DNA of 64,000 bases from Patescibacteria group bacterium (lineage in GTDB: Bacteria > Patescibacteriota > Patescibacteriia > PEXW01): positions 9,206-73,205 of the forward strand of contig JBAYJA010000001.1 in assembly GCA_041665345.1 (NCBI GenBank), written 5' to 3'. How positions within the stretch are numbered: the stretch's first letter is position 1; each line of letters opens with the position of its first letter. Made by a program: the position numbers and the translations under genes. Shown here piece by piece: positions 4,479-57,646 of this stretch. Under the pieces are notes generated by a model. That model was given only the letters and a program-made list of their open reading frames with translations. It searched no databases and was not told the origin of the DNA.

Positions 4479-4606
4479 ATTTCCTCCTGATGCAATATTT
4501 TAACCACGTATTCTGTTGTAAAAGATGTTCCCCACCTTACTACGTGGGTTCTTGGGTGTCAACCGCAGCGTCGTGCATAGCTTTCTTGTATCTGTAGACA
4601 AAAAAA

Positions 4607-4628
4607 GCTCACTGCACGTGCAGTGAGC
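4607..4628 (-). terminator. Rho-independent terminator for the small zinc-ribbon ORF.
   Basis: Perfect 22-nt palindrome GCTCACTGCACGTGCAGTGAGC preceded on the plus strand by AAAAAAA (4600-4606). On the minus strand this reads as a hairpin followed by a U-tract. Confidence 0.6.
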
Positions 4629-4641
4629 TTGCTCACAGTTA

Positions 4642-9122: not shown

Positions 9123-9851
9123 TTGAAAGGAGGAAACATGAGCTGGAATCGACCAGCAGAAATAGTGCTCATTCGACATGGGGAATCGTTACGAAATTTG
9201 CTTATGGAAGGGAAGGCCTGCATTCCTAATGAGACTGCGAGGCGGGGACTGGAGGGCTACCATGACCACACTATCCCGCTCACGGCACGTGGGGAAGTGC
9301 AGGCGCGTGATGCTGGACCGAAGATCATTGCGGACATTGGACTGCCAGATTGTGTGTACCACTCTGGGTATGTACGCGCCAAGCGAACGTTGGAGGGCAT
9401 GCTCGAGCATCTCCCTGAGGAGGTTCGATCCAAAATTCGGATCTACTGGAAGTTCGAACTTCGCGAACGAAGTTCCGGCGCACGTTGGCTGATGACGCAG
9501 GAGGAGTATGACAAACACTTCCCCTGGGCTGAAGCTCAGTATCGTACTATTGGGCCGTTTCTCTTTCAACCACCTGGTGGTGGGGAGAGTATCGCCGATT
9601 TGGTTTGCGGGCGCGTCCATAGCGCCGTTGATACGATTTTTCGAGATCGGCCTGGTCAACGCGTGTGGTTGGTGTGCCACGGCCAAGTCATGCGAGCCGC
9701 GCGCGTCCTCTTTGAGCGGACGCCGCTGGAAGCACTTGATGCAGTCATGGCAAGCCATGCACCGAACCTCGGCCTCATCCGCTACGTCTACGAGGAGGGG
9801 AGTGAGACGCCCACGCGTACACACCTCTACAGCACGTACACTGATCTTTAA
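9123..9851 (+). CDS. Histidine phosphatase (phosphoglycerate mutase-like) family protein.
   Basis: EIVLIRHGESLRN contains the RHG motif and the family's N-terminal architecture. Confidence 0.65.
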   Translation: MKGGNMSWNRPAEIVLIRHGESLRNLLMEGKACIPNETARRGLEGYHDHTIPLTARGEVQARDAGPKIIADIGLPDCVYHSGYVRAKRTLEGMLEHLPEEVRSKIRIYWKFELRERSSGARWLMTQEEYDKHFPWAEAQYRTIGPFLFQPPGGGESIADLVCGRVHSAVDTIFRDRPGQRVWLVCHGQVMRAARVLFERTPLEALDAVMASHAPNLGLIRYVYEEGSETPTRTHLYSTYTDL

Positions 9852-9862
9852 GTTCGTTCTAT

Positions 9863-9897
9863 GGGGCGAGTCGTTATGCGATTCGCCCCCTTTTTTT
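9863..9897 (+). terminator. Intrinsic terminator for the 9123-9851 gene.
   Basis: GGGGCGAGTCG-ttat-GCGATTCGCCCC followed by TTTTTTTT. Confidence 0.6.
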
Positions 9898-9904
9898 GTC
9901 GAAA

Positions 9905-9933
9905 GAAAAAAGGCGAACCGGGGTGGGTTCGCC
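9905..9933 (-). terminator. Intrinsic terminator for the minus-strand gene 9944-10549.
   Basis: GGCGAACC-ggggtg-GGTTCGCC preceded by an A-run on the plus strand, which gives a U-tract on the minus strand. Confidence 0.5.
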
Positions 9934-9943
9934 TGACCATGAT

Positions 9944-10549
9944 TCATGCGTGAAGCATGTTCAAAAGCGTATCATTGAAGGAAACTGCCTGATTGATCAC
10001 GGCCTCGCTTAGACGATAGATCTTCAGTACCTTGCCCTGTAAGTCGTTCAATCCAAAGTCAATGCAGATGTGCGCAACTGAGAAATTCTCAGGGATAGAA
10101 GACTCTTTAACGTTTTGTGGATTTGGTAGCTGTAGATGTTTGTAAATGCCTGCAACAATGTGAGTGGCAAATGACTGAGTGCGTTCGCGTCCATCCACTG
10201 GTATTTGAATGACCGCTTCTTCTGTTTGCTCTTTCGAAGTTTGATGAATGCAGTGAAGCCAGTACACCTTCGGGCTAAAATAGGTGTTGTCCAAGAAATT
10301 CTGGCAGAAATCAGTGTAAGCCCAATGTTTCAGGCGGAGGTCTCGCACCTGAATTTGTGCTGCACTTGGATTAAATTTTCCACGTTGGTCCGCAGCTATG
10401 ACAAACCACAGCCACGGAAAATCACGGATTAATTCATTTACATTCGAAGCATAATACATGTTTCCTCCTGCGCGTCCGCGCTTTGATCCGTCCGGATCTG
10501 GAAGGGGTTGTTTGGTTTTTGCCCAGCTATCTAGCGAGGCAGTTGTCAA
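9944..10549 (-). CDS. Hypothetical protein.
   Basis: ORF track 201 aa. No recognisable motif. Confidence 0.35.
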   Translation of the reverse strand: MTTASLDSWAKTKQPLPDPDGSKRGRAGGNMYYASNVNELIRDFPWLWFVIAADQRGKFNPSAAQIQVRDLRLKHWAYTDFCQNFLDNTYFSPKVYWLHCIHQTSKEQTEEAVIQIPVDGRERTQSFATHIVAGIYKHLQLPNPQNVKESSIPENFSVAHICIDFGLNDLQGKVLKIYRLSEAVINQAVSFNDTLLNMLHA

Positions 10550-10703
10550 AGAATAGTCTAGGTTAGTTTACAGCTCAGTATTTGTCAATGATTGAGAGCA
10601 TTGTTTTTCCATTGCGCGGGCACAGAGACCCGCGCTAGGTTCTTTTGTTGGTCATTCGATCTTTCGGCTTTACGGCGTACGGCTCTACGGCTATCCTTCC
10701 CCC

Positions 10704-11720: not shown

Positions 11721-11788
11721 AGAGATTTCCTTGCATACCACAAACGCACCTTGGAGAAGGTGCGTTTGGAATAGATAAAACAACGTAA

Positions 11789-12049
11789 TTACTTCGCTTT
11801 GTTCAGCGCTTTCATCAACCGGGACTTCTTGCGGCTGGCGGTGTTCTTCTTGATCACACCTTTGCGAGCCGCCTTGTCCAAGAGCTGAATTGCCGCCAGG
11901 ACGCTGGCTTTGGATTCAGCGGTTTTGCCCGTAATAGATTTACGTGCAGACTGGACGGCCTGTTTGGTGGTGCGTTTCACGTTGAGGTTCCGGGCGCCCC
12001 GGGAAATGGTCTGGCGGACGTGCTTGGCTGACGCTTTCTTGATTGGCAT
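11789..12049 (-). CDS. rpsT: 30S ribosomal protein S20.
   Basis: MPIKKASAKHVRQTISRGARNLNVKRTTKQAVQ... matches the S20 N-terminus. Start refined to the internal ATG at 12049. Confidence 0.85.
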   Translation of the reverse strand: MPIKKASAKHVRQTISRGARNLNVKRTTKQAVQSARKSITGKTAESKASVLAAIQLLDKAARKGVIKKNTASRKKSRLMKALNKAK

Positions 12050-12206
12050 ACGAAAGTAAAGTGTAAACGTTGAGGTGACTTTTACGCTACCATGGACAAA
12101 AGCCGGGTGCAAGTCTCCGGCTCAGGAAGGCCTTGCTGGCTCGCATCTGCGGCGTATACTTACAGCATAGTTTACCCCCCGTTCTTTTACCCCAAACAGG
12201 AGGCTG

Positions 12207-12476
12207 GTGATGACAGGAAGTTCTCACCCCACAGTCGCGGAGCGTACATTCGCAGACAAATTCATCACTTGCATAGACTGCAAGGAAGAGTTTGCCTTCA
12301 CCGTATCTGCTCAGGAGTACTTTGCCGAAAAAGGTTTCACAGGAGACCCAAAACGATGCCGCACGTGTTACGCTGCGTACAAACAGCAACACCCGAAGGG
12401 AAGCAGCAAAACAATGAAGGGACCATTCACTGTCCCGCCAGGAGGTGAGCACCTTCTGAACCTCGACTTTGAGTAG
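12207..12476 (+). CDS. Zinc-ribbon protein of the zf-trcl type, with two CxxC motifs.
   Basis: CIDCKEEFAFTVSAQEYFAEKGFTGDPKRCRTCY matches the probable zinc-binding zf-trcl pattern (CxxC...F..EKGF...P.RC..C). Confidence 0.5.
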   Translation: MMTGSSHPTVAERTFADKFITCIDCKEEFAFTVSAQEYFAEKGFTGDPKRCRTCYAAYKQQHPKGSSKTMKGPFTVPPGGEHLLNLDFE

Positions 12477-14124: not shown

Positions 14125-14218
14125 TACATTTCCACGGCCTCTCCCTTGAGAGGTCGTTTTGTTGCAAAGAAAAACCCGAGATATGGTATCTCGGGTTCGT
14201 ACAAATACTTTCGTCGAG

Positions 14219-18551: not shown

Positions 18552-18578
18552 GAAAAAGCCGCTCACATGGGTGAGCGG
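18552..18578 (-). terminator. Intrinsic terminator ending the GHKL operon.
   Basis: GCCGCTCAC-atgg-GTGAGCGGC with a U-tract on the minus strand. Confidence 0.5.
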
Positions 18579-18591
18579 CTTGAAGGTGCAA

Positions 18592-27841: not shown

Positions 27842-27870
27842 AAAAAAAGCTGCCGAAGGGATTCGGCAGC
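27842..27870 (-). terminator. Intrinsic terminator for prs.
   Basis: GCTGCCGAA-ggga-TTCGGCAGC with a U-tract on the minus strand. Confidence 0.55.
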
Positions 27871-27877
27871 TAGATGA

Positions 27878-35200: not shown

Positions 35201-37261
35201 TTGTTTGCTACACTACTCCTACCTATGTCCACTGTGATTCTCCACCGCCGGCCAGCCAAGGACCTTAAAATTGACTACGCCAAAGAGCTAAATGCTGAGC
35301 AATTTGTCGTGGTGGAAAATGGCGATGGACATGTGCTGGTTTTAGCCGGTGCCGGGTCGGGTAAGACGCGGACCATTGTCTACCGCGTGGCCTGGCTCCT
35401 GGAGCATGGCATTAGCCCAGACCGGATTTTGCTGGTCACGTTTACCAACAAAGCCGCTCGGGAAATGCTCACCCGCATTCAAGAGCGCTTGGGCGGCGTT
35501 CCGAGTCCCATTTGGGGTGGGACGTTCCACCACGTGGCCAACCGGATTCTGCGCCGCTACGCCGACCGGGTGGGCCGCACCCCCAGCTTTAGCATTCTGG
35601 ACCAGGAAGACAGCCGGAGTCTGATCAACGCGTGCATTGCAGATTTAAATATTGATACCAAGCAGCGACGCTTTCCCACGGCGAATGTTTTGAAGAACCT
35701 CATTTCCTTTTCGCGAAACACACGGCAGGATATTGCCGACATTGCTGTAGAGAAACTGCCCAACGCGCATGCAATTGTGGACCAAGTGGTCGGCGTGGCT
35801 CGGCGGTACGCCGAGCGGAAGGCGAAGCAGAACCTCATGGACTTCGATGACCTGCTCGTCCTCATGGTGGAGCTTCTGGCCAACCATGCCGATGTCCGCA
35901 CCAAGCTCCAAGAGCAGTTCCAGTACGTCCTGGTAGACGAATTTCAAGATACGAACTCTTTACAAGGCGAGCTAGTGCGCAATCTTGCCAGCAAGCACGG
36001 GAATTTGCTGGTCGTGGGGGATGACAGCCAGAGCATTTACGCCTTCCGCGGCGCAGACATAAGTAATATTTTGCAGTTCCCCAAGACCTTTCCCGAAACC
36101 AAGCAGTTTCGCCTGGAGTCCAATTACCGTTCCACCCCGCAGATCCTCAAATTGGCCAACGCAGTTATCCGGCACAACCTTGAGCAGTTCCCCAAAGAGC
36201 TCCATGCCATGCGCCCAGCCGGGGATTTGCCGCAGCTCATTCCCTGCCGGGATGATGGGCAGGAAGCCACGTTCATTGCTCAGCGCATTTTAGAATTGCA
36301 AACGAACGGCACTGCGTTTCGCGAGATGGCCGTGCTCGTGCGCGCGATTAGCCACACCCAAGCTTTGGAATTTGAGCTCGCCCAGCGGGACATTCCATAC
36401 ATTGTGCGTGGCGGCTTGCGGTTCTTTGAGCGCGCGCACATCAAGGACGTGCTGGCCTACGTGAAGTTCATTGCCAACCCAGCAGATGAAGTTGCGTGGT
36501 TACGCGCCACCACCTTACACGTCGGTGTTGGACCCAAGACCGCGGGAGAACTTTTCAACCGCGTGCAGAGCTTGGGATCGGATACTGATCTGAAGACCAT
36601 CAATTTTGTGTCGTTGGTGGACAAGCGGGGGATGAAGGGGATAGCCATGTTCCAGGCGGTGATTCGGAAGATGTTGGACACCGGAGTCATGGATGAAAAA
36701 AAGGAAAAAGTAGTGTACCTTCCGCAGGAGCTCATTCGTGTTGTGGCAACCGGGGAGTACATTGATTACCTGCGCACGCAGTACCCAGATGCGGATGAGC
36801 GTTTGCAGGACTTGGAACAGCTGGCCTTGTTTGCCAGCAAGTACAAATCCCTTAGCTCATTTCTGTCCGACGTGAGTTTGCAAGAAGCGTTCAGCGTGGG
36901 TGCGGTGAGCAGCGAGAATGATGACGCCATTGTGCTGTCCACCATCCACCAAGCCAAAGGCTTGGAATGGGAAGCAGTTTTTGTCCCTCGTCTGGTGGAA
37001 GGGAGCTTCCCCAATGGACGCGCCACGGAGGAGCGAAACGGCATTGAAGAAGAGCGACGGCTATTCTACGTGGCCACCACGCGGGCCAAGACCCACTTAG
37101 CGTTGTCCTACCCATTGGTCATCAATCCCACGGGCGCCATGCTCCTCACCCGGCCATCACGTTTCTTGGACGAAATTCCATCCAACGCCCTGGATCGGGT
37201 TGAGCTGCAGGAAGAAGGATTGGGGAATTGGGACGGGAGCGAAAGAATCATTCAGATATAA
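35201..37261 (+). CDS. UvrD/PcrA-family ATP-dependent DNA helicase.
   Basis: Walker A VLAGAGSGKTRT, VDEFQDTN, and a C-terminal UvrD_C motif VLSTIHQAKGLEWEAVFV. Confidence 0.85.
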   Translation: MFATLLLPMSTVILHRRPAKDLKIDYAKELNAEQFVVVENGDGHVLVLAGAGSGKTRTIVYRVAWLLEHGISPDRILLVTFTNKAAREMLTRIQERLGGVPSPIWGGTFHHVANRILRRYADRVGRTPSFSILDQEDSRSLINACIADLNIDTKQRRFPTANVLKNLISFSRNTRQDIADIAVEKLPNAHAIVDQVVGVARRYAERKAKQNLMDFDDLLVLMVELLANHADVRTKLQEQFQYVLVDEFQDTNSLQGELVRNLASKHGNLLVVGDDSQSIYAFRGADISNILQFPKTFPETKQFRLESNYRSTPQILKLANAVIRHNLEQFPKELHAMRPAGDLPQLIPCRDDGQEATFIAQRILELQTNGTAFREMAVLVRAISHTQALEFELAQRDIPYIVRGGLRFFERAHIKDVLAYVKFIANPADEVAWLRATTLHVGVGPKTAGELFNRVQSLGSDTDLKTINFVSLVDKRGMKGIAMFQAVIRKMLDTGVMDEKKEKVVYLPQELIRVVATGEYIDYLRTQYPDADERLQDLEQLALFASKYKSLSSFLSDVSLQEAFSVGAVSSENDDAIVLSTIHQAKGLEWEAVFVPRLVEGSFPNGRATEERNGIEEERRLFYVATTRAKTHLALSYPLVINPTGAMLLTRPSRFLDEIPSNALDRVELQEEGLGNWDGSERIIQI

Positions 37262-37278
37262 CACCAAGTTTGATTTGC

Positions 37279-37869
37279 ATGTCCCTCCCCCGGTTCCACG
37301 AAGATAGCTATGGACATTTTGTAACGACGAAGACCTTCCAAAGTCAGCGGCTATTTACTGATCCAAAAAATTGTCAGATGGTCTTAGATAATTTGGAATT
37401 TTACCGTCAGCAATTACACTTCGACGTGTTGGGGTACTGCCTCATGCCAGACCATTTCCATATGATTGTGTGGTGGGATGTGGATGCACACCCAAAGCTG
37501 ACCATTGGGAAAATTATGCAAGGCATCAAGAGCCACTCGGCGAAGGAGATTGTTACCTACCACCAACTGGGTAGGCGAGGTCCCTTGACCTCGCCTGGTG
37601 GAAAACGCCCGGGTCAAGGGACCCGGGCTACCCACCCAGGGGTATATCCCAAGCGTCGAATGAGTGTACAGACCACCCGCATCTGGCAACCCTCCTTCTA
37701 CGACTTTAACATCCATTCCGATAACAAACTCCGCCAGAAGCTCGCCTACATCCACAATAACCCGGTCACCGCAGGGCTTTGTAAAAACCCTGAAGACTGG
37801 CCGTGGTCATCCTACCGGCAGGTAGAGCTGGGTGAGCAAAGCAAAGAGGTTGCAATCACTACCTGGTAA
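37279..37869 (+). mobile_element. IS200/IS605-family Y1 (HUH) transposase of the RAYT/TnpA-REP type, carrying a 20-25-aa in-frame insertion.
   Basis: HUH motif DHFHMIVW, and a C-terminal NPVTAGLCKNPEDWPWSSY holding the catalytic Tyr region typical of RAYTs. An internal insert GRRGPLTSPGGKRPGQGTRAT is encoded by two hairpins. Confidence 0.7.
37573..37628 (+). repeat. Double-hairpin (REP/MITE-like) element inserted in-frame in the transposase gene.
   Basis: AGGCGAGGTC-CCTT-GACCTCGCCT (10-bp stem), then a 9-nt spacer, then GCCCGGGTC-AAGG-GACCCGGGC (9-bp stem). The two loops are complementary (CCTT and AAGG). Confidence 0.55.
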
Positions 37870-37870
37870 C

Positions 37871-37898
37871 AAAAAAAGACCAGCCTTGGTGGCTGGTC
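37871..37898 (-). terminator. Intrinsic terminator of the ACCAGCC family for the 37907 gene.
   Basis: GACCAGCC-ttggt-GGCTGGTC with a U-tract on the minus strand. Confidence 0.55.
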
Positions 37899-37906
37899 AA
37901 ATAGGC

Positions 37907-38311
37907 TTACTGTACGTACGGTCGAGGGTCTTTTAAGAAACGACCGCTCCTACCCACCGCAATGTACTGCGGGATCTGGGAACCCTGTTCGTAATCACGC
38001 CGCTCGGCCAGAATGACGAAATGCAAGGTGTCCATGGAGTAGCGATAGTACGAGGTGTCCAAGTCGTCCTCCGGGTACATTGCTGGCAAATTTTCGTTCC
38101 AGCGACCTTCCCGGCAAAAGTGACTTTCCTGGTTGATCATGAGTTGCAGCAAGGTGCGTTTGGCGATTCCAGCTTGCTTTTCTTGAAGCGCATTCTCATC
38201 GGAACTTGTAGTTATTCCTATGAGGGAGGCGATCATAATGAACGAGATTGTGAACAGCATGATTTTCATTTTGGTCATTCCTGTCATGTTTCCTCCAAAG
38301 TATGATTTCAT
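37907..38311 (-). CDS. Small secreted or membrane-anchored hypothetical protein.
   Basis: N-terminal signal/TM KIMLFTISFIMIASLIGI. Confidence 0.4.
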   Translation of the reverse strand: MKSYFGGNMTGMTKMKIMLFTISFIMIASLIGITTSSDENALQEKQAGIAKRTLLQLMINQESHFCREGRWNENLPAMYPEDDLDTSYYRYSMDTLHFVILAERRDYEQGSQIPQYIAVGRSGRFLKDPRPYVQ

Positions 38312-38359
38312 TTTCGTGTCACCATAGCCATGGTCAGGGGTATTGTCAAGCGCATAACA

Positions 38360-38386
38360 AAAACCAGCCTCATGGGAGACTGGTCA
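38360..38386 (-). terminator. Intrinsic terminator of the ACCAGCC family.
   Basis: ACCAGCCTC-atggga-GACTGGT, an imperfect stem, with flanking A-runs on the plus strand. Confidence 0.4.
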
Positions 38387-38393
38387 AAAAATT

Positions 38394-39023
38394 CTAAGGA
38401 ACAAATCGCTCGGGTTGCAATCCAGGGAGCCGAGACGTTGCTAAACTGATTGCGTCTAGGCTGCGTTGGAGGTGGTCGTACTCTGGATGTACGCCCTTAC
38501 TTTCATCGTAGGCGAGTGAAAATTCGTGTTGCACGCGTGCGGAGAAGTTTTCTGGATTGCCATACTTTTCGTATAGGGAACTTGCTGGGGAGATCGTTTT
38601 CCAGACAATTGCCGATGGAAAGGTATGCGCCATATCCGGGCACGTGGTGGTGATGCTGTCTGGGTACTCTAGGTAGGAGTCTGAAAAGGGACGGAGGAAG
38701 CTTCGTTCGACAATTTTTCCATTGGCATTTTGAACAAGCATCTTTTCCGGTTTCACCTTCAAGCTTATATACGTTCCGAAAACCAAAAAGAAAAGGAACA
38801 TTGTTAGAGCAAAGGCGTGCGCTCGTAAAGGCGCTGGGTTGGAACTGTTTCTTGCTATGAAGCACACCGCACTCCAAATGAGGATTAGTAGACTCGTGAA
38901 GAGCTGAGTATAGCCAGGAGACGTTCGCCCAATCGAAATTGCCCAGCCGCCAATAAGTAGATTTAGTACACATATGACGAGGAACATCCAAATCGCGTAC
39001 CAGGTCATTTTTTTCAGGTTCAT
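38394..39023 (-). CDS. Membrane protein with three TM helices and a soluble domain, paralogous to 15704-16405.
   Basis: It shares LYEKYGNPENFSARVQHEF with LFRKYGKPEIFFADFEQEC of the other copy. An upstream promoter TTGACA-17-TACGGT lies at about 39058-39086. Confidence 0.5.
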   Translation of the reverse strand: MNLKKMTWYAIWMFLVICVLNLLIGGWAISIGRTSPGYTQLFTSLLILIWSAVCFIARNSSNPAPLRAHAFALTMFLFFLVFGTYISLKVKPEKMLVQNANGKIVERSFLRPFSDSYLEYPDSITTTCPDMAHTFPSAIVWKTISPASSLYEKYGNPENFSARVQHEFSLAYDESKGVHPEYDHLQRSLDAISLATSRLPGLQPERFVP

Positions 39024-39141
39024 TTTTCCTCCAAATTTTCAAGGCTCATTCAATTTCAAGACACCGTAACAAAACAACTAGACAGTGTCAATAGCAAAGC
39101 CCCTCCATTCGTCGTCCGTTGTCTGTTGTCCGTTGTTTACT

Positions 39142-39169
39142 AAAAACCAGCCCTCGGCAGAAGGCTGGT
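39142..39169 (-). terminator. Intrinsic terminator of the ACCAGCC family.
   Basis: ACCAGCC-ctcggcaga-aGGCTGGT preceded by AAAAA on the plus strand. Confidence 0.5.
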
Positions 39170-39177
39170 CATAAGTA

Positions 39178-39675
39178 CTACAGGATCTCGTACCACGATT
39201 TCCCAATTTCTCTTTGGTAGATTGTCAGTTTATCCAGGATAAACGTCTCTTGGAAAGGTTCAGTCTGAAGCTCTGTCATTACCCGTTCTAGCTCGGGATT
39301 CGGAATGCCGCGGGCAATGGAAATATGGAAAACAATTTTTTTCCTTTCCAGTGGCTCACGAAGTTGGGACAGGTCTTCCTTCAACACCCGCAGTAATTCC
39401 TCAAGATCCGGGCTGAAAATTTTCAGGCAGGCGACATTCTCTTTTTGGTTCTGGAAAGAACTGTAGCCCTGGATTTTTATCCGAGCCTCCAACAAAGAGC
39501 CTGCTTGATTTAAGACACTCGCCTTTGTGCTAAAGCCAGGCACCTGAAACGGCGGGACAATGGTGATATGCGGTGGCAGCATTTGCTTCCGAAACTGCCA
39601 CCGAGCTTGCATCATCGCAATGCGGCTTTTCAGCGGCTCTGGGACAAGGCCGACAATCAGGTATTCGTAGATCAT
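39178..39675 (-). CDS. thpR: RNA 2',3'-cyclic phosphodiesterase / 2'-5' RNA ligase (2H phosphoesterase, LigT-like).
   Basis: Two H-x-T/S-x motifs (HITIV and HISIA) at the spacing expected for 2H enzymes. Start refined to MIYEYLIVG at 39675. Confidence 0.7.
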   Translation of the reverse strand: MIYEYLIVGLVPEPLKSRIAMMQARWQFRKQMLPPHITIVPPFQVPGFSTKASVLNQAGSLLEARIKIQGYSSFQNQKENVACLKIFSPDLEELLRVLKEDLSQLREPLERKKIVFHISIARGIPNPELERVMTELQTEPFQETFILDKLTIYQREIGKSWYEIL

Positions 39676-39837
39676 GGCGTATTCCTTATGGGAAGAACAT
39701 TTTTCCAATACATTTTTTAGGTAGTGAGCGTAGCAAATGTGCAGTCGGGGGTCAATGGTACGGCCTACACAAAAATATGTATGTGTTTAAATGAAAAAGC
39801 TCAGCTGCGGTGTTGCAACTGAGCTAAGGGTTCAATT

Positions 39838-40656
39838 TTATTCTTGAGCTTGGAATGCCCAGTGCACCCAGGCAATCGGCACATCTGCTTGTTTTGCTAA
39901 TTCTTCAACACTCATATTGAGTTGCAGACGACACTGGTTTGCCTCGCGTATATCACCGTCATCCCAGCGTCGCTGTACTGGTGATTCGGCGTACGCCCGA
40001 CGGAGCGCGTGGACAGCCCCATTTTGCCAGCCTTGCCTCCGGAGTTCTTCCAAGTCCTCGCGACTAGTCCCTAACCAGTGCAGAAAGCCCGGGATCGTGT
40101 CACGCGCAATGAGGTATCCAACTGTACTTTCAACAGAAAAAGAATCTACTCGTTCCAAGGCTCTTTCATAGCTATGCCGTAAATCGTAGAGGAAGCAAGA
40201 ATCTTCCACCATCTGGAGCTGTGTGAGGGTTGGTTCCAGACCGCCAAACAAGCACCCATCTTTCTGCATGGCTTGTCGGAGTCGTTTCGTTAATGCACGC
40301 GCATCGGAGCAAGCCCACTCGTCACTGTAGTCTAAAGTTTTAAGTGTTTGCCACAGCCGCTGTGCGTCGTATGATTCTGACAGGCAAATGAGCGAGTCAA
40401 CGTGCAGTGAGTCAGGACCGAAACTTTCTCCCAGCATAGTGACTTTTAAGAATCGAAGGGAATCCAGAGCCTGCCGACGAATGAGGTCCTCTTGGTAGCT
40501 TTGTTCCATTGATTGCATTCGACTTGTGTATGCCTGAGAAACCTCACGTTTTTTCTGCGCTACCGGATCCATTTTTTGCTTCTCGCAATACACCAGCAGC
40601 GACGACAAAATGACAATGAACAATAGGCGGACAGCCCAATAATGTCTACTCAACAT
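39838..40656 (-). CDS. Hypothetical secreted protein.
   Basis: N-terminal signal peptide VRLLFIVILSSLLVYC. No motif. Confidence 0.4.
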   Translation of the reverse strand: MLSRHYWAVRLLFIVILSSLLVYCEKQKMDPVAQKKREVSQAYTSRMQSMEQSYQEDLIRRQALDSLRFLKVTMLGESFGPDSLHVDSLICLSESYDAQRLWQTLKTLDYSDEWACSDARALTKRLRQAMQKDGCLFGGLEPTLTQLQMVEDSCFLYDLRHSYERALERVDSFSVESTVGYLIARDTIPGFLHWLGTSREDLEELRRQGWQNGAVHALRRAYAESPVQRRWDDGDIREANQCRLQLNMSVEELAKQADVPIAWVHWAFQAQE

Positions 40657-40802
40657 TTCACCCTCCAGTCAATTTTGAATAAGCTTTTTTAAAATTCACC
40701 CAACCTTACCAACCTGCCCTGAGGTTGTCAAATGGAGTGAAAATGTATTTTTTAATCTCCGGGCATGGCAGCTCAGACCCAGGAGGAGTACAATACCTCC
40801 GC

Positions 40803-42077
40803 ATGCCCAAAGACCTCTTTGACCACAAACTGGAAATGGATGTTGCCCAGCACGCTCCGCTGGCGGATCGTTTGCGTCCCAGTAAATTAGACGACTTTGT
40901 TGGCCAGGAGGAAATCGTGGGTGAAGGGAAGCTGCTTCGCAAAGCCATTGCCAACGATGAGCTCTTCTCCATGATTTTTTGGGGACCGCCGGGCAGTGGG
41001 AAAACCACTCTGGCGCGGATCATCGCCCAGCTCACCAAGTCGTACTTTGTGCAAATGTCCGCGGTGACCAGCGGCATTGCGGATTTACGTAAGGTTGTGG
41101 AATATGCCAAAGAGCGTCGCAAGCTACACGGAACCCGCACTATTTTGTTTGTCGATGAAATTCATCGGTGGAACAAAGCCCAGCAAGATGCGTTCTTGCC
41201 ACACGTAGAAGATGGGACAGTGGTTTTGATTGGCGCTACAACCGAGAATCCTTCCTTTGAAATTATTAGTCCGCTCCTCTCCCGAACACGCGTTTTCGTA
41301 ATGAAACGCTTGGGCATTCCCGAGCTTTCAAAAATTGTGAAGCGCGCACTATCCGATAAAGATCGCGGTTTGGGCAAACACAAAGTTGCGATTGCAGCCA
41401 AGGCTTTGGATTTGCTGCTCAGTGCGGGGAATGGCGACGCACGAACTGTACTCAATGCTTTGGAAATCGCAACGAAAGCAGCCAAGGCGGACAGCAAAGG
41501 GAAGAAGCATGTGGGTCTACCGGACATGGAAGACGCACTCCAACATAAAGCGCTGCAGTACGACAAACATGGGGAGGAGCACTACAATGTCATATCCGCG
41601 TTCATCAAATCCATGCGTGGGTCAGATCCAGATGCCGCGCTCTACTGGTTGCACCGCATGGTGGAAGCCGGTGAGGACCCGGAGTTCATTGCTCGGCGCA
41701 TGGTGGTCTTCGCCTCCGAAGACGTTGGCTTGGCTGACCCAAATGCGCTTACCGTGGCCATTAATGTGATGCAGGCCGTAAAGCTGATTGGTTACCCAGA
41801 GTGTCAGATCAACCTTTCTCACGGCTGTGTGTACTTGGCCAACGCGCCAAAAGATAACTCGACGTACAAGGGTATGCTCGCAGCCAAGCAGGACGTGAAG
41901 GAGAGCATGAACGAGCCAGTGCCGCTGCACTTACGTAATGCGGTTACCGATCTGATGAAAGATTTAGATTATGGGAAGGATTACAAGTACTCGCATGACT
42001 TCGCAGCTGAAGAGGGGAAGCAAGACTATTTGCCCAAGAAGTTGAAGGGGAAGAAGTACTGGGAGAAGAAGGTATAG
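40803..42077 (+). CDS. rarA: Replication-associated recombination protein A (AAA+ ATPase). The ORF track's alternative start at 40725 is less likely.
   Basis: PLADRLRP..LDDFVGQ, Walker A GPPGSGKTT, Walker B VLFVDEIHRWNKAQQD, and C-terminal MgsA domains. Confidence 0.85.
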   Translation: MPKDLFDHKLEMDVAQHAPLADRLRPSKLDDFVGQEEIVGEGKLLRKAIANDELFSMIFWGPPGSGKTTLARIIAQLTKSYFVQMSAVTSGIADLRKVVEYAKERRKLHGTRTILFVDEIHRWNKAQQDAFLPHVEDGTVVLIGATTENPSFEIISPLLSRTRVFVMKRLGIPELSKIVKRALSDKDRGLGKHKVAIAAKALDLLLSAGNGDARTVLNALEIATKAAKADSKGKKHVGLPDMEDALQHKALQYDKHGEEHYNVISAFIKSMRGSDPDAALYWLHRMVEAGEDPEFIARRMVVFASEDVGLADPNALTVAINVMQAVKLIGYPECQINLSHGCVYLANAPKDNSTYKGMLAAKQDVKESMNEPVPLHLRNAVTDLMKDLDYGKDYKYSHDFAAEEGKQDYLPKKLKGKKYWEKKV

Positions 42078-47955: not shown

Positions 47956-48603
47956 TTGCGCCCAATCACACATGTGATTGGGCTCTTTCTTTGTGCTAGG
48001 GTTATGGATATGACGTACCACCCCTTAACTATGTTGCGCATTGCCCGCTTTGCTTTTGCAGCGTGGCTGCTGGTGGAAATCCTCAGCTGGGCCGGTATTC
48101 TCCCGTTAACCCTGGAATTTACCTGGCTAGGCTTAGTCCTGACCGCATCCCTGGCGTGGCTGGCATTGGAAGTCATTTCTTGGCGACTGCGGAAGGTTGG
48201 CGCGGGTAACCTCTGGGGTTGGACCTTCCTTGCTGCACTCATCAGCCAGTGCACCGATGCCTTGGGGGACATTCTCCGCTTGTACGGTACACAGGCCTGG
48301 TATGATCAGGCTGCACATTTTGTAGGTGGCGCAGTTGTTGCCTTAGTGTTCTACAACATTTTTCACAACTTGCAGGGACACGGGAGCATGCGTTTGCCAC
48401 CAAGCTGGATGTCTGCTTTTTCCATTTTCAGTGCCATGGCCATTGGCTCACTCTACGAATTGGAAGAGTACGGTGAAGACGTGCTGTTCCATAGCAACCG
48501 GCTAGGCAGTGCCTTTGATACAGGGAACGATATGTTCTTTAATACCATTGGTGCTGTTGTGCTGGTCGTCTGTCTGGTGTACTTCCGGCGAAAACGCGTA
48601 TGA
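47956..48603 (+). CDS. Hypothetical membrane protein.
   Basis: Multiple TM helices. Its stop overlaps the Mur ligase start. Confidence 0.4.
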   Translation: MRPITHVIGLFLCARVMDMTYHPLTMLRIARFAFAAWLLVEILSWAGILPLTLEFTWLGLVLTASLAWLALEVISWRLRKVGAGNLWGWTFLAALISQCTDALGDILRLYGTQAWYDQAAHFVGGAVVALVFYNIFHNLQGHGSMRLPPSWMSAFSIFSAMAIGSLYELEEYGEDVLFHSNRLGSAFDTGNDMFFNTIGAVVLVVCLVYFRRKRV

Positions 48604-57592: not shown

Positions 57593-57618
57593 AGCCTATT
57601 CAAAAAAGTAGACTCCCA

Positions 57619-57646
57619 AGCCCCGGCTCTCTAGCCGGGGCTTTTG
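57619..57646 (+). terminator. Intrinsic terminator after rpoC.
   Basis: AGCCCCGGCT-ctct-AGCCGGGGCTTTT. Confidence 0.6.

Follow-up and report, generated by a model that had tools for sequence, protein, structure and literature searches.

The window, a 64-kb stretch of a 1.07-Mb genome, contains a RAYT gene that begins just past the stop of a UvrD-like gene, and two GTAG-footed hairpins in inverted orientation lie inside its reading frame. The features of the locus are listed below.

37279 to 37869, plus strand: RAYT (TnpA_REP) gene, 196 amino acids, intact ORF
37453 to 37461, plus strand: codons of the HUH motif, H59-F60-H61, aligned to PEHMHCI of 4ER8
37568 to 37634, no strand: whole inverted REP doublet (REPIN-like, "double foot"), delimited by the inverted repeat, the DNA fold, and the same architecture in relatives
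37571 to 37596, plus strand: REP unit 1, GTAG foot at 37571 to 37574 and hairpin 1
37576 to 37668, plus strand: translated insert, codons 100 to 130, a low-confidence or disordered loop in the AF2 model
37597 to 37606, no strand: spacer between the units, GGTGGAAAAC, not conserved
37607 to 37631, minus strand: REP unit 2, GTAG foot (complement of 37628 to 37631) and hairpin 2
37684 to 37689, plus strand: codons W136-Q137, aligned to W94 and Q95 of Escherichia coli TnpA_REP (4ER8)
37747 to 37761, plus strand: catalytic Tyr motif Y157-I-H-N-N161 (YIHNNP), from the alignment to 4ER8

The RAYT gene and its product

The gene product matched the NCBIfam profile REP_Tyr_transpos (NF047646) with 106.8 bits against a cutoff of 80, covering profile positions 4 to 146 of 146, and its Pfam match was Y1_Tnp. 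It is 100% identical to a protein annotated at its source as a Patescibacteria transposase (P0001). The gene was originally predicted to overlap the uvrD-like gene; however, the UvrD-like ORF stops at 37261, and the ATG of the RAYT gene lies 17 nt past that stop, at 37279. An overlap arises only for an unnecessary TTG-extended ORF from 37228, while all homologues begin with M-x-LPRF and gene callers chose 37279. The gene lies within conserved chromosomal synteny, with RarA, UvrD, and ComM as conserved neighbors, and it diverges faster than neighboring genes: compared with the related locus L003, the RAYT protein is 85% identical and UvrD and RarA are 95 to 96% identical.

The predicted HUH motif was recovered as H59-F60-H61, corresponding to H59/M60/H61 of E. 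coli TnpA_REP (Messing et al. 2012, PMC3479197). In contrast, the segment PEDWPWSSY, initially taken for the catalytic-Tyr region, is a conserved C-terminal motif, and the nucleophile is Y157 in AYIHNNP; its counterpart in 4ER8 is Y115, and that of N161 is N119. Neither this correction nor that of the uvrD overlap affects the main reading. W136 and Q137 were invariant in both RAYT protein alignments (A1 and A2). Quentin et al. place their E. coli counterparts, W94 and Q95, among the residues that interact with GTAG, the role of W94 being unclear, and Q95 contacts DNA near the foot in 4ER8. An AF2 model of the protein (pLDDT, 81.9) had 4er8_A as its best Foldseek match (E = 2.2e-8; TM, 0.69 normalized on the target). 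With HUH, Y157, and N161 present and 4ER8 as the top fold match, the enzyme looks active. Identity as an IS200/IS605 TnpA was considered and rejected: the transpos_IS200 profile scored 27.5 bits, under its cutoff of 55; the residue at Y+4 is N161 and not the Q of the Y-x-x-x-Q motif; neither flanking hairpins nor inverted repeats were found in the 64-kb window; and the chromosomal synteny around the gene is conserved.

An inverted REP doublet within the reading frame

The two perfect hairpins that drew attention to this gene were confirmed within the intact ORF. Hairpin 1 has fully (100%) complementary 10-bp arms at 37573 to 37582 and 37587 to 37596 (AGGCGAGGTC/GACCTCGCCT) and the loop CCTT at 37583 to 37586, and hairpin 2 has 9-bp arms at 37607 to 37615 and 37620 to 37628 (GCCCGGGTC/GACCCGGGC), with a loop that reads AAGG on the plus strand and CCTT on the minus strand. 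The whole doublet spans 67 nt in the order TGGGTAG, hairpin 1, 10-nt spacer, hairpin 2, CTACCCA, and the hairpins also fall within a longer imperfect inverted repeat (37568 to 37590 with 37612 to 37634; 23-nt arms, 87% complementary). As single-stranded DNA, the region from 37560 to 37642 folds with −30.4 kcal/mol (z = −5.66), and none of 200 shuffles folded as well. Perfect hairpins with stems of 9 bp or more number 13 in the window, compared with about 1.9 in Markov-simulated windows, and the RAYT hairpins are the sole adjacent pair among them and lie inside a confirmed coding sequence. Judged by their positions in the ORF list and not individually checked, the remaining 11 mostly seem to stand at gene ends, as terminators do.

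GTAG stands directly at the foot of each hairpin, with one unit per strand and the feet facing outward. Quentin et al. define a REP as GTAG or GTGG lying 0 to 2 nt 5′ of a stem that is paired throughout, measures 7 bp or more, and closes a loop of 2 to 5 nt; here, GTAG is found at 37571 (plus strand) and 37631 (minus strand), with stems of 8 to 10 bp and loops of 4 nt. The two units are inverted, on opposite strands, and separated by 10 nt, as in a REPIN. A GTAG-footed pair of this kind is what defines an inverted REP doublet (REPIN, or double foot), although REPs and REPINs are described as extragenic and this one lies within codons 97 to 119 of the RAYT ORF.

Three readings of the shape of the element were set aside. 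The complementary "kissing" loops CCTT and AAGG are no special feature, because they follow from two like units standing in inverted orientation. A single long hairpin is disfavored as the selected form, since the units differ at the stem base, each compensating within itself, and since the GT[AG]G foot is retained without a partner in single, direct, and tail-to-tail arrangements among relatives. A T-shaped structure like an AAV ITR and a rolling-circle origin are analogies that nothing supports.

The ORF runs intact through the hairpin segment, which is translated in frame as GRRGPLTSPGGKRPGQGTRATH between the HUH motif and the catalytic Tyr, in line with the original prediction. In the AF2 model, residues 100 to 124 and 127 to 130 have pLDDT values below 50, while most others are at or above 90 (124 of 196 residues). 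The insert follows helix 76 to 96 (αC) and precedes strand 141 to 145 (β4), and this low-confidence part of the model suggests a surface loop between αC and β4. Against insert-less RAYTs, the alignment opened a gap of some 40 residues precisely at the insert. Both the alignment and the structure prediction proposed as checks agreed with an inserted loop.

Conservation of the palindrome across the clade

GT[AG]G-footed hairpins were found at the same protein position in 18 of 18 relatives with readable DNA, with unrelated stem sequences; the element is present at this position throughout the Patescibacteria/Chloroflexi-like RAYT clade. As a positive control, the same detector recovered the classical GTAG hairpins on the flanks of RAYT genes from outside the CPR (L062, L071, L078, L044, and L059). 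Scans of genome and metagenome contigs gave, among the matches listed, mostly insert-less Acidobacteria-type RAYTs, which are useful as controls, and viral contigs held one distant RAYT relative without the insert.

In an alignment of 29 units (A3), 99.5% of cells were Watson-Crick paired, compared with 61% in shuffles and 36 to 46% with slid partners, the observed percentage being somewhat inflated because the units were located partly via the hairpin search. All seven stem pairs (7/7) covaried with both sides changing, compensatory cells numbered 88 (25.9 ± 5.1 in shuffles), and 2 of 203 cells were G-U. Compensatory changes also occurred within the window's own type, C:G to T:A in hairpin 2 of L163 and G:C to A:T in hairpin 1 of L179. 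Loops with nonpalindromic DNA in homologues had been named as counting against a REP-like element, and the outcome was the opposite: the homologues' loops are palindromic.

Synonymous sites within the hairpins are frozen. Compared with L003, synonymous differences numbered 0/16 in the hairpin codons and 56/146 in the rest of the gene; compared with L163, the values were 1/15 and 55/98. The spacer differed from that of L003 at 4 of 9 aligned codon nucleotides, while both hairpins were identical. Furthermore, about 14 proteins with overall identities of only 57 to 85% shared the peptide GRRGPLTS[PS] without change. Units of one gene resembled each other, with 6.7 of the 8 apical nucleotides identical versus 2.8 of 8 between loci (permutation p < 1e-4); they differed at the stem base, each difference being compensated within its unit. 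At least seven distinct stem/loop types were found, and the encoded peptides differed by type (GRRGPLTSP, GRRKPSLSP, GSRGVSAST, GRQGFYALP, and GRLEPLLQP), with DNA pairing always preserved. Amino acid changes tracked codon complementarity, as in the change from G/T (GGT/ACC) to K/L (AAG/CTT). In an extra segment of type A, YPxRRMSEQ, conservation was at the protein level and synonymous change was free.

The arrangement of the units varied: tail-to-tail in L177, direct in L175, a single unit in L178, and one palindrome in L083. Such variety is as compatible with turnover or reinsertion as with conservation. Every architecture retained the GT[AG]G foot, even the single unit of L178, where the foot lacks a pairing partner. 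Internal units were degenerate in L084 and L085, with further copies of this kind in L174, and tandem expansions at the insert site were seen in L174, P0044, P0116, and P0122. A palindrome test on peptides was positive for 81 of 113 insert-bearing proteins (23.7 ± 4.7 with shuffled inserts), but this test is crude, since 65 of the same proteins were also positive in their longer remainder, and we give it little weight.

Two further ideas about the history of the insert were rejected. Precise excision restoring a canonical ORF does not fit foot-to-foot distances of 61, 58, 60, 55, and 58 nt in five lineages, which are not consistently multiples of 3, nor a 3′ reading frame that varies by type. 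Short Y1_Tnp ORFs in L165 are not supported as cleavage footprints at the element: the ORF at 11855 to 12220 is a full-length paralogue with a CAG-to-TAG nonsense change, and that at 9638 to 9994 is a mosaic N-terminal copy. These ORFs are suggestive of recombination at REP units, but ambiguously so.

Copies outside the gene

When each hairpin was searched with up to three mismatches, the whole 64-kb window yielded self-matches alone. A REP-unit covariance model applied to the window matched unit 1 (37568 to 37597; 39 bits, E = 2.5e-6) and unit 2 (37605 to 37634, minus strand; 35.9 bits, E = 1.1e-5), and elsewhere in the window it scored no more than 13 bits, apart from opposite-strand echoes of the same locus. 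In agreement with the original prediction, no flanking copy was thus detected in the window, where no REPtron arrangement with a unit outside the RAYT ORF is present and where the doublet is single rather than repetitive; the search covered 64 kb of the 1.07-Mb genome and, for relatives, ±10 kb around the gene. Seven other lineages likewise showed no copy outside the RAYT gene within ±10 kb. An Rfam search of the sequence returned a tRNA as its single match and none to the hairpins.

In contrast, REPs flank the gene, as in a REPtron, in L173, L083 to L086, L177, and L178. About 200 nt upstream of its gene, L173 carries a copy with 98% identity over 60 nt, its internal and flanking copies differing at 1 nt in 60; copies lie just beyond the gene in L083, L084, L085, L086, L094, L177, and L178; and L175 has a pair of copies 5.3 kb away. 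Near-identical copies flanking the gene in several relatives identify the internal element as the cognate REP. Collectively, the GTAG feet, the palindromic homologues, and these flanking copies support the original suggestion of a REP-like pair inside a RAYT, whether self-targeted or domesticated.

Interpretation and alternative explanations

We favor the explanation, at a probability of roughly 55%, that the doublet is the RAYT's own kind of substrate, carried in frame, held by selection at the DNA level, and most likely serving as a cis-acting site. When the region becomes single stranded, on the lagging-strand template or in a transcription bubble, each unit would fold as a DNA hairpin. The RAYT could then bind a unit as E. 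coli TnpA_REP binds GTAG and a hairpin, through the region of W136/Q137 and the HUH/Y157 site, and if it does, the gene carries putative sites at which its own product would bind and possibly cleave. The conservation at the sequence level implies that the element is kept by selection on DNA and not on the peptide. Its likeliest role would be that of a cis-acting site for autoregulation or for loading of the enzyme in cis; alternatively, one REP substrate may have been retained in a streamlined genome without room for extragenic copies. Either function is inferred. A dispersed REP population may also keep overwriting the internal copy by conversion.

A bolder version, which we hold only tentatively and judge to have the odds against it, is that the internal doublet is the sole REP left in streamlined Patescibacteria, selected because the RAYT needs at least one cognate hairpin in cis for self-regulation or loading or for a host-beneficial task at replication forks beside its conserved neighbors RarA, UvrD, and ComM. 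If so, RAYT and REPIN would be fused into one heritable unit, and REPs embedded in ORFs would form a natural one-to-one catalogue of enzymes and substrates that could be used to decipher the REP recognition code.

The most serious alternative, although an unlikely one, is that the doublet, although a REP pair all the same, has no function and is a selfish or neutral passenger that came to lie in a RAYT loop tolerant of insertions. It would stay palindromic by mutational mechanisms, either quasi-palindrome correction through template switching or gene conversion from other REP copies, and would persist since nothing short of an exact in-frame deletion could eliminate it. Quentin et al. 2018 (PMC6006769) saw the insertions of their subclass 2.4 as probably neutral peripheral extensions of little impact, and many unrelated genes contain intragenic REP dimers (Di Nocera et al. 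2013, PMC3733652). The disorder of the loop agrees with this, the variable architectures and copy numbers with tandem expansions suggest turnover, and the single difference between the two L173 copies suggests recent copying. However, correction by template switching preserves the complementarity of the arms without slowing divergence, whereas the hairpins have changed less than synonymous sites and than the rest of the protein, as the invariant GRRGPLTS illustrates. Conversion would call for a donor, and neither the 64-kb window nor the ±10 kb searched in the seven other lineages yielded one. Nor does a passenger account for a GT[AG]G foot kept in all architectures, including the partnerless unit of L178.

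It is improbable that the hairpins act in the mRNA, where they would slow ribosomes, alter mRNA stability, or attract RNase and so keep the level of transposase low, with recognition by the RAYT being irrelevant. Both hairpins are transcribed and very stable, and low expression is typical of transposases. REPs elsewhere stabilize mRNA and affect termination, according to Messing et al. (PMC3479197). On the other hand, nearly pure Watson-Crick covariation is what a strand-symmetric DNA palindrome should show, a conserved RNA helix would seldom show it, and no Rfam family matched. Action in the mRNA would also leave unexplained the conserved GT[AG]G foot of unit 2 on the opposite strand and the identical copies in flanks that are nontranscribed or differently oriented. 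That the insert is instead a protein feature, a Gly/Arg/Pro-rich flexible arm aiding DNA binding with incidental palindromic DNA, is scarcely credible: it is basic, it adjoins the W-Q strand, whose 4ER8 equivalent contacts the GTAG foot, and YPxRRMSEQ does behave as protein, but the covariation already largely refutes this idea, as the hairpin peptide differs completely by type with DNA pairing always intact, synonymous sites are frozen, and pLDDT is below 50.

This clade bears on what RAYTs do for their hosts and on how each RAYT recognizes its own REP. With each enzyme gene carrying its own substrate in the ORF, the clade offers ready-made pairs of enzyme and hairpin, and covariation between protein residues and hairpins can be analyzed without a prior hunt for dispersed repeats. 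The strong constraint at the nucleotide level questions the published view of such insertions as neutral decoration and suggests that genomes with almost no intergenic space still keep one REP doublet. For annotation, the Gly/Arg/Pro/Ser-rich inserts in such Patescibacteria "transposases" are translated DNA palindromes and not protein domains.

Comparison with known systems

In-frame REP insertions in tnpA_REP genes were described for TnpA_Y1 subclass 2.4, equivalent to RAYT Group 4, by Quentin, Siguier, Chandler, and Fichant (BMC Genomics 19:475, 2018; PMC6006769), and comparisons here are with the available text of that paper. As in subclass 2.4, the tnpA_REP gene carries an in-frame REP in the stretch that separates HuH from Y, and YIxNNP (here YIHNNP), WQ, and a median length of about 194 amino acids fit the present protein. 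In contrast, the variable insertion of subclass 2.4 lies between β3 and αC, as it does in the relatives P0131, P0143, P0144, and P0148, whereas here it lies between αC and β4. The HuH motif of that subclass is NH[IFV]H and here is DHFH, although some clade members have NH[LV]H. A C-terminal SS motif, said to be missing from subclass 2.4, is present, while the flanking REPs also described for subclass 2.4 genes are absent from the 64-kb window. The host is a member of the Patescibacteria, outside the phyla named there. Finally, that text reports neither covariation nor constraint at synonymous sites, and both were found here.

The doublet resembles REPIN-RAYT systems, including that of E. coli TnpA_REP (4ER8; Bertels and Rainey 2011, PMC3116915; Messing et al. 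2012, PMC3479197), in having two inverted REPs with a short spacer and an HUH/Y1 enzyme of the same fold with aligned catalytic residues. It also shares with them the GTAG foot, which is required for binding and cleavage in those systems (PMC3116915, PMC3479197). Classical REPINs, however, are extragenic elements that flank the RAYT gene and occur in tens to hundreds of copies, whereas the present doublet lies inside the ORF and is the only one found in 64 kb. Intragenic GTAG REP dimers (Di Nocera et al. 2013, PMC3733652) and the Rickettsia palindromic elements cited there are likewise in-frame palindromes, mostly head-to-head dimers, that add 20 to 30 residues to functional proteins, but they belong to abundant families and occupy unrelated host genes (uvrA, recB, dnaE, and others). 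Unlike those elements, the one described here sits in the gene of the enzyme presumed to recognize it, and the insertion is common to a whole clade.

Genes for rolling-circle Rep proteins, such as phiX174 gene A and pT181 repC, are HUH nuclease coding sequences that hold their own hairpin or nick site. Those sites are origins of small replicons, whereas the present RAYT gene is embedded in conserved chromosomal synteny and shows no sign of replication initiation or of an excisable replicon. REPs inside RAYT genes have been known since 2018; the present case differs in its Patescibacteria host, in the loop concerned, in a palindrome that is kept clade-wide, and in having no second copy in the 64-kb window.

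Identification of a REP doublet within the RAYT gene

A repeat search recovered both hairpins of the original prediction, with the stems and loops as described, together with a longer imperfect inverted repeat, inside the gene for a REP-associated tyrosine transposase (RAYT).

37279-37869 (+): RAYT gene, 196 aa
37573-37582 / 37587-37596: hairpin 1, perfect 10-bp inverted repeat, loop CCTT
37607-37615 / 37620-37628: hairpin 2, perfect 9-bp inverted repeat, loop AAGG
37568-37590 / 37612-37634: longer imperfect inverted repeat, 23 nt, 87% complementary

The window reads CCACCAACTGGGTAGGCGAGGTCCCTTGACCTCGCCTGGTGGAAAACGCCCGGGTCAAGGGACCCGGGCTACCCACCCAG at positions 37560-37640. As had been proposed, the segment is translated in frame: the ORF is uninterrupted across it and encodes GRRGPLTSPGGKRPGQGTRATH there. 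Folded as single-stranded DNA, the region reached -30.4 kcal/mol (z = -5.66), which was equalled by 0 of 200 shuffles. GTAG stands directly 5' of each hairpin on that hairpin's own strand; the plus strand carries TGGGTAG and then hairpin 1, and the minus strand carries TGGGTAG and then hairpin 2 (on the plus strand, hairpin 2 followed by CTACCCA). Quentin et al. 2018 (PMC6006769) define a REP operationally as a stem of at least 7 bp, fully paired and closed by a short loop, with GTAG or GTGG as its foot at a distance of 0-2 nt. E. coli TnpA_REP depends on GTAG both to bind and to cleave (Messing et al. 2012, PMC3479197), and a pair of units with feet outward is the predominant "head-to-head" dimer, or REPIN (Di Nocera et al. 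2013, PMC3733652).

The hairpin pair is a real, well-defined feature. The window has 13 perfect hairpins with stems of 9 bp or more, compared with ~1.9 in simulated sequence, and the RAYT pair, located inside a confirmed coding sequence, is the only adjacent one. Judged only by position in the ORF list, the remaining long hairpins appear mostly to lie at gene ends, in the manner of terminators. Seven of 10-12 bp with 3-4-nt loops (4605-4630, 11741-11768, 14173-14197, 18556-18581, 27848-27871, 47960-47983 and 57618-57643) all lack a GTAG foot, and most appear from that list to lie at or near ORF ends; they are probably ordinary terminators and explain most of the long-hairpin excess.

The RAYT protein and its neighborhood

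The 196-aa product scored 106.8 bits with the NCBIfam profile REP_Tyr_transpos (cut-off, 80) and only 27.5 bits with transpos_IS200 (cut-off, 55), and was assigned to Y1_Tnp in Pfam; a 100% identical protein, encoded on a 1.07-Mb contig, carries a source annotation as a Patescibacteria transposase. The sole match among solved structures was E. coli TnpA_REP with a REP hairpin (4ER8), in which W94-Q95, catalytic Y115 and N119 align with W136-Q137, Y157 and N161. The HUH motif was retained, as expected, as H59-F-H61, and by these alignments the catalytic core is intact. The earlier interpretation of a REP-like hairpin pair within a RAYT coding sequence was correct apart from two side errors. Since Y157 aligns with the catalytic tyrosine, PEDWPWSSY had been mis-assigned as the catalytic-Tyr region; its counterpart in E. 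coli TnpA_REP is DWPFSTF, in the C-terminal region. Nor does the gene overlap the 3' end of the uvrD-like gene, which stops at 37261; the RAYT start at 37279 is backed by the homologues, which all begin M-x-LPRF, and by the gene callers' choice.

AlphaFold modelling from 41 homologues gave a mean pLDDT of 81.9, with 124 of 196 residues at 90 or above, and the model's best PDB match was again 4ER8. Residues 100-124 and 127-130 fell below a pLDDT of 50, and the model placed this low-confidence stretch between helix 76-96 and strand 141-145. Right after the RAYT stop codon, at 37871-37898, an A-run precedes the hairpin GACCAGCC-ttggt-GGCTGGTC; on the minus strand this is a hairpin followed by a T-run, and it resembles an intrinsic terminator serving the convergent gene 37907-38311 (-). 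The RAYT gene has no terminator of its own.

Conserved synteny links the RAYT gene to replication and repair genes. Positions 35201-42077 of the window encode a UvrD-like helicase, the RAYT, a LigT-like 2'-5' RNA ligase and RarA/MgsA, and the order UvrD-RAYT-(LigT)-RarA is shared with the relative's locus L003, at identities of 95-96% for UvrD and RarA and 85% for the RAYT. RarA is immediately upstream of the RAYT in L165, L168, L169 and L171 (in L171 it overlaps the RAYT start by 4 nt), and ComM is upstream in L163. This synteny agrees with reports that RAYTs are inherited vertically, much like housekeeping genes. Despite these identities to the Patescibacteria-labelled window, L003 (CAZBMC010000003.1) is labelled uncultured Gammaproteobacteria bacterium; one of the two labels is probably wrong.

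Conservation of the insert among relatives

The insert is common to the close homologues at the protein level (about P0001-P0076), and alignment located it between HUH and WQ, which are 52-145 residues apart with the insert and 33-35 in insert-less RAYTs. Its peptides form discrete types (GRRGPLTSP..GQGTRAT, GRRKPSLSP..SEGSRLP, GSRGVSAST..QGTKAL, GRQGFYALP..GIKA, GRLEPLLQP..RGSHLP and others), and the differences between types track codon complementarity. Relatives keeping the loop without palindromic DNA would have counted against the prediction; the opposite was seen, with GT[AG]G-footed hairpins of differing stems at the same protein position in 18 of 18 loci for which DNA was read.

Examples of hairpin stems and loops at the insert site in loci of relatives
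L165: hairpin 1, GCGAAAGC, loop cctc; hairpin 2, CTGCGAGC, loop cctc
L168: hairpin 1, TCGAGGC, loop gtttct; hairpin 2, CAAGGC, loop ctttgt
L169: hairpin 1, ACGGGGC, loop ttttat; hairpin 2, CAAGGC, loop tttcat
L173: hairpin 1, GTTGGAGC, loop ctct; hairpin 2, ATGAGAGC, loop ctct
L004 (labelled Dehalococcoidia): hairpin 1, CTCGGAGC, loop atcc; hairpin 2, GTGAGAGC, loop atct

The two most divergent insert-bearing relatives, L175 and L178, lie among ilv/leu and pyr/carAB operons. Because such amino-acid and pyrimidine biosynthesis operons are usually missing in Patescibacteria, the ORF-embedded REP probably extends beyond this phylum. In L094 (10130-10560) a frameshift or a sequencing error divides the RAYT over two reading frames at the HUH motif, and the perfect double-foot palindrome is still present.

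Copies and architectures of the element

When the 64-kb window was scanned with a covariance model of the unit, the two internal units were the sole finds (39 and 35.9 bits); no other locus exceeded 13.3 bits, apart from opposite-strand echoes of the internal hairpins (17.4 and 13.7 bits), which bears out the earlier remark that flanking copies are absent from the window. Likewise, no copies outside the gene were found within +/-10 kb in L003, L163, L179, L168, L169, L171 or L004. A simple GTAG-hairpin detector, applied to 2.0 Mb of relatives' loci, recovered as a positive control the classical REP arrays flanking non-CPR RAYT genes (L062 Stenotrophomonas, L071 Dolichospermum, L078, L044, L059 and L028), and in relatives of the window's gene it located the pair inside the gene. 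Several relatives carry outside copies as well.

Copies outside the RAYT gene in loci of relatives
L173: 60 nt, 98% identical, ~200 nt upstream
L083: one copy, upstream
L084, L085: upstream and downstream
L086: 87% identical, just 3' of the stop codon
L177, L094: upstream
L178: four units, upstream
L175: a pair, 5.3 kb away

Given these outside copies, the internal element is a REPtron's cognate REP; the core Patescibacteria lineages seem to have lost their flanking copies. Site architectures vary, with tail-to-tail units in L177, direct units with GTGG feet in L175, a single unit in L178, one perfect "double-foot" palindrome (GGGTAGGCTGGCCGAC|GTCGGCCAGCCTACCC) in L083 and L094, and tandem expansions in L174, P0044, P0116 and P0122. 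The foot is retained in every arrangement and is therefore a property of the unit, not merely outer stem. In the multiplied inserts (L174:10290-10564, P0044, P0045, P0048, P0116 and P0122) the frame stays open over 90-145 residues of repeated SEGSHLP-like or SRRQEPPLL-like peptides. L165 (9590-12450) holds three RAYT copies within 3 kb: a mosaic N-terminal fragment (9638-9994) carrying a different REP type, that of L168, a full gene (10001-10597), and a paralogue of 87% identity whose REP doublet is closely followed by a CAG>TAG nonsense codon. There, CTACCC-ACGGGATTYGAT..ATG follows a REP unit (9592-9621) and recurs 3' of the fragment's doublet, as though REP feet had been the points at which segments were joined.

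Evidence for selection on the palindromes, and a proposed role

The analysis shows the anatomy of the element, its occurrence across the clade, a constraint at the nucleotide level, cognate copies flanking the gene in relatives, an intact catalytic core and a disordered, low-confidence encoded loop. The element's role is most likely that of a cis site (for autoregulation or cis-loading), or of the single substrate that a compact genome has retained. Both units would fold in single-stranded DNA and be bound by the gene's own product, by analogy with 4ER8, and selection acting on DNA would keep the element.

The chief alternative, less likely but still plausible, is that the doublet is a neutral passenger which template-switch correction or conversion keeps palindromic. 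It is weakened by the excess conservation of the hairpin sequence over both the surrounding protein and synonymous sites, and by the lack of donor copies nearby, in the 64-kb window and within +/-10 kb in seven other lineages. Synonymous differences in hairpin codons numbered 0/16, 1/15 and 1/11 against L003, L163 and L179, compared with 56/146, 55/98 and 44/94 in the rest of the gene. The 10-nt spacer between the hairpins changes freely; in the insert's downstream portion (YPxRRMSEQ in the window's type), the protein is conserved and synonymous change is free. For the residues encoded by the hairpins, any role at the protein level can be essentially excluded.

An mRNA-level role of the hairpins is possible; however, it leaves unexplained the minus-strand foot and the near-absence of G-U pairs. 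When 29 distinct units, located partly via their hairpins, were aligned without gaps, leaving out a few degenerate internal units (L084/L085, and extra L174 copies), 99.5% of cells were paired, compared with 61.3 +/- 2.4% when shuffled and 36-46% with slid partners. Both sides had changed at 7 of 7 stem pairs, with 88 compensatory cells (25.9 +/- 5.1 in shuffles) and G-U in only 2 of 203 cells. Compensatory changes also occur within the window's own type (hairpin 2 C:G>T:A in L163; hairpin 1 G:C>A:T in L179). Such Watson-Crick-only covariation favours a strand-symmetric DNA palindrome over an RNA helix. The apical 8 nt were more alike between one gene's two units (6.7/8 identical) than between loci (2.8/8; P < 1e-4), and stem bases differed between the two units, each compensated internally, which argues that selection targets each of the two hairpins, alike in specificity, rather than a single long hairpin.

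Comparison with known systems

GTAG REP dimers have been catalogued inside other genes (Di Nocera et al. 2013, PMC3733652). Quentin et al. 2018 (PMC6006769) described in-frame REP insertions in tnpA_REP genes of subclass 2.4, together with "double foot" REPs, and regarded the variable region as a peripheral extension of probably little impact; the in-frame REP of a RAYT gene is therefore a kind of feature already known. A literature search of incomplete coverage returned no report of a RAYT-embedded REP in Patescibacteria, nor of covariation or synonymous constraint. The window's RAYT resembles TnpA_Y1 subclass 2.4 of Quentin et al. in WQ, YIxNNP and a length near the subclass median (194 aa), but differs in its HUH motif (DHFH versus NH[IFV]H; some clade members have NH[LV]H), its C-terminal SS motif, the absence of flanking REPs in the 64-kb window, and the loop that bears the insertion (alphaC-beta4 versus beta3-alphaC). 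RAYTs 40-46% identical to it (P0131, P0143, P0144, P0148 and P0162) carry repetitive inserts after the HUH strand and before helix alphaC, at the beta3-alphaC site published for subclass 2.4; two loops of this enzyme family therefore accept repeats. New features are the host phylum, the loop in which the insert lies, the apparent lack of outside copies, and the quantitative evidence for selection on the palindromes.
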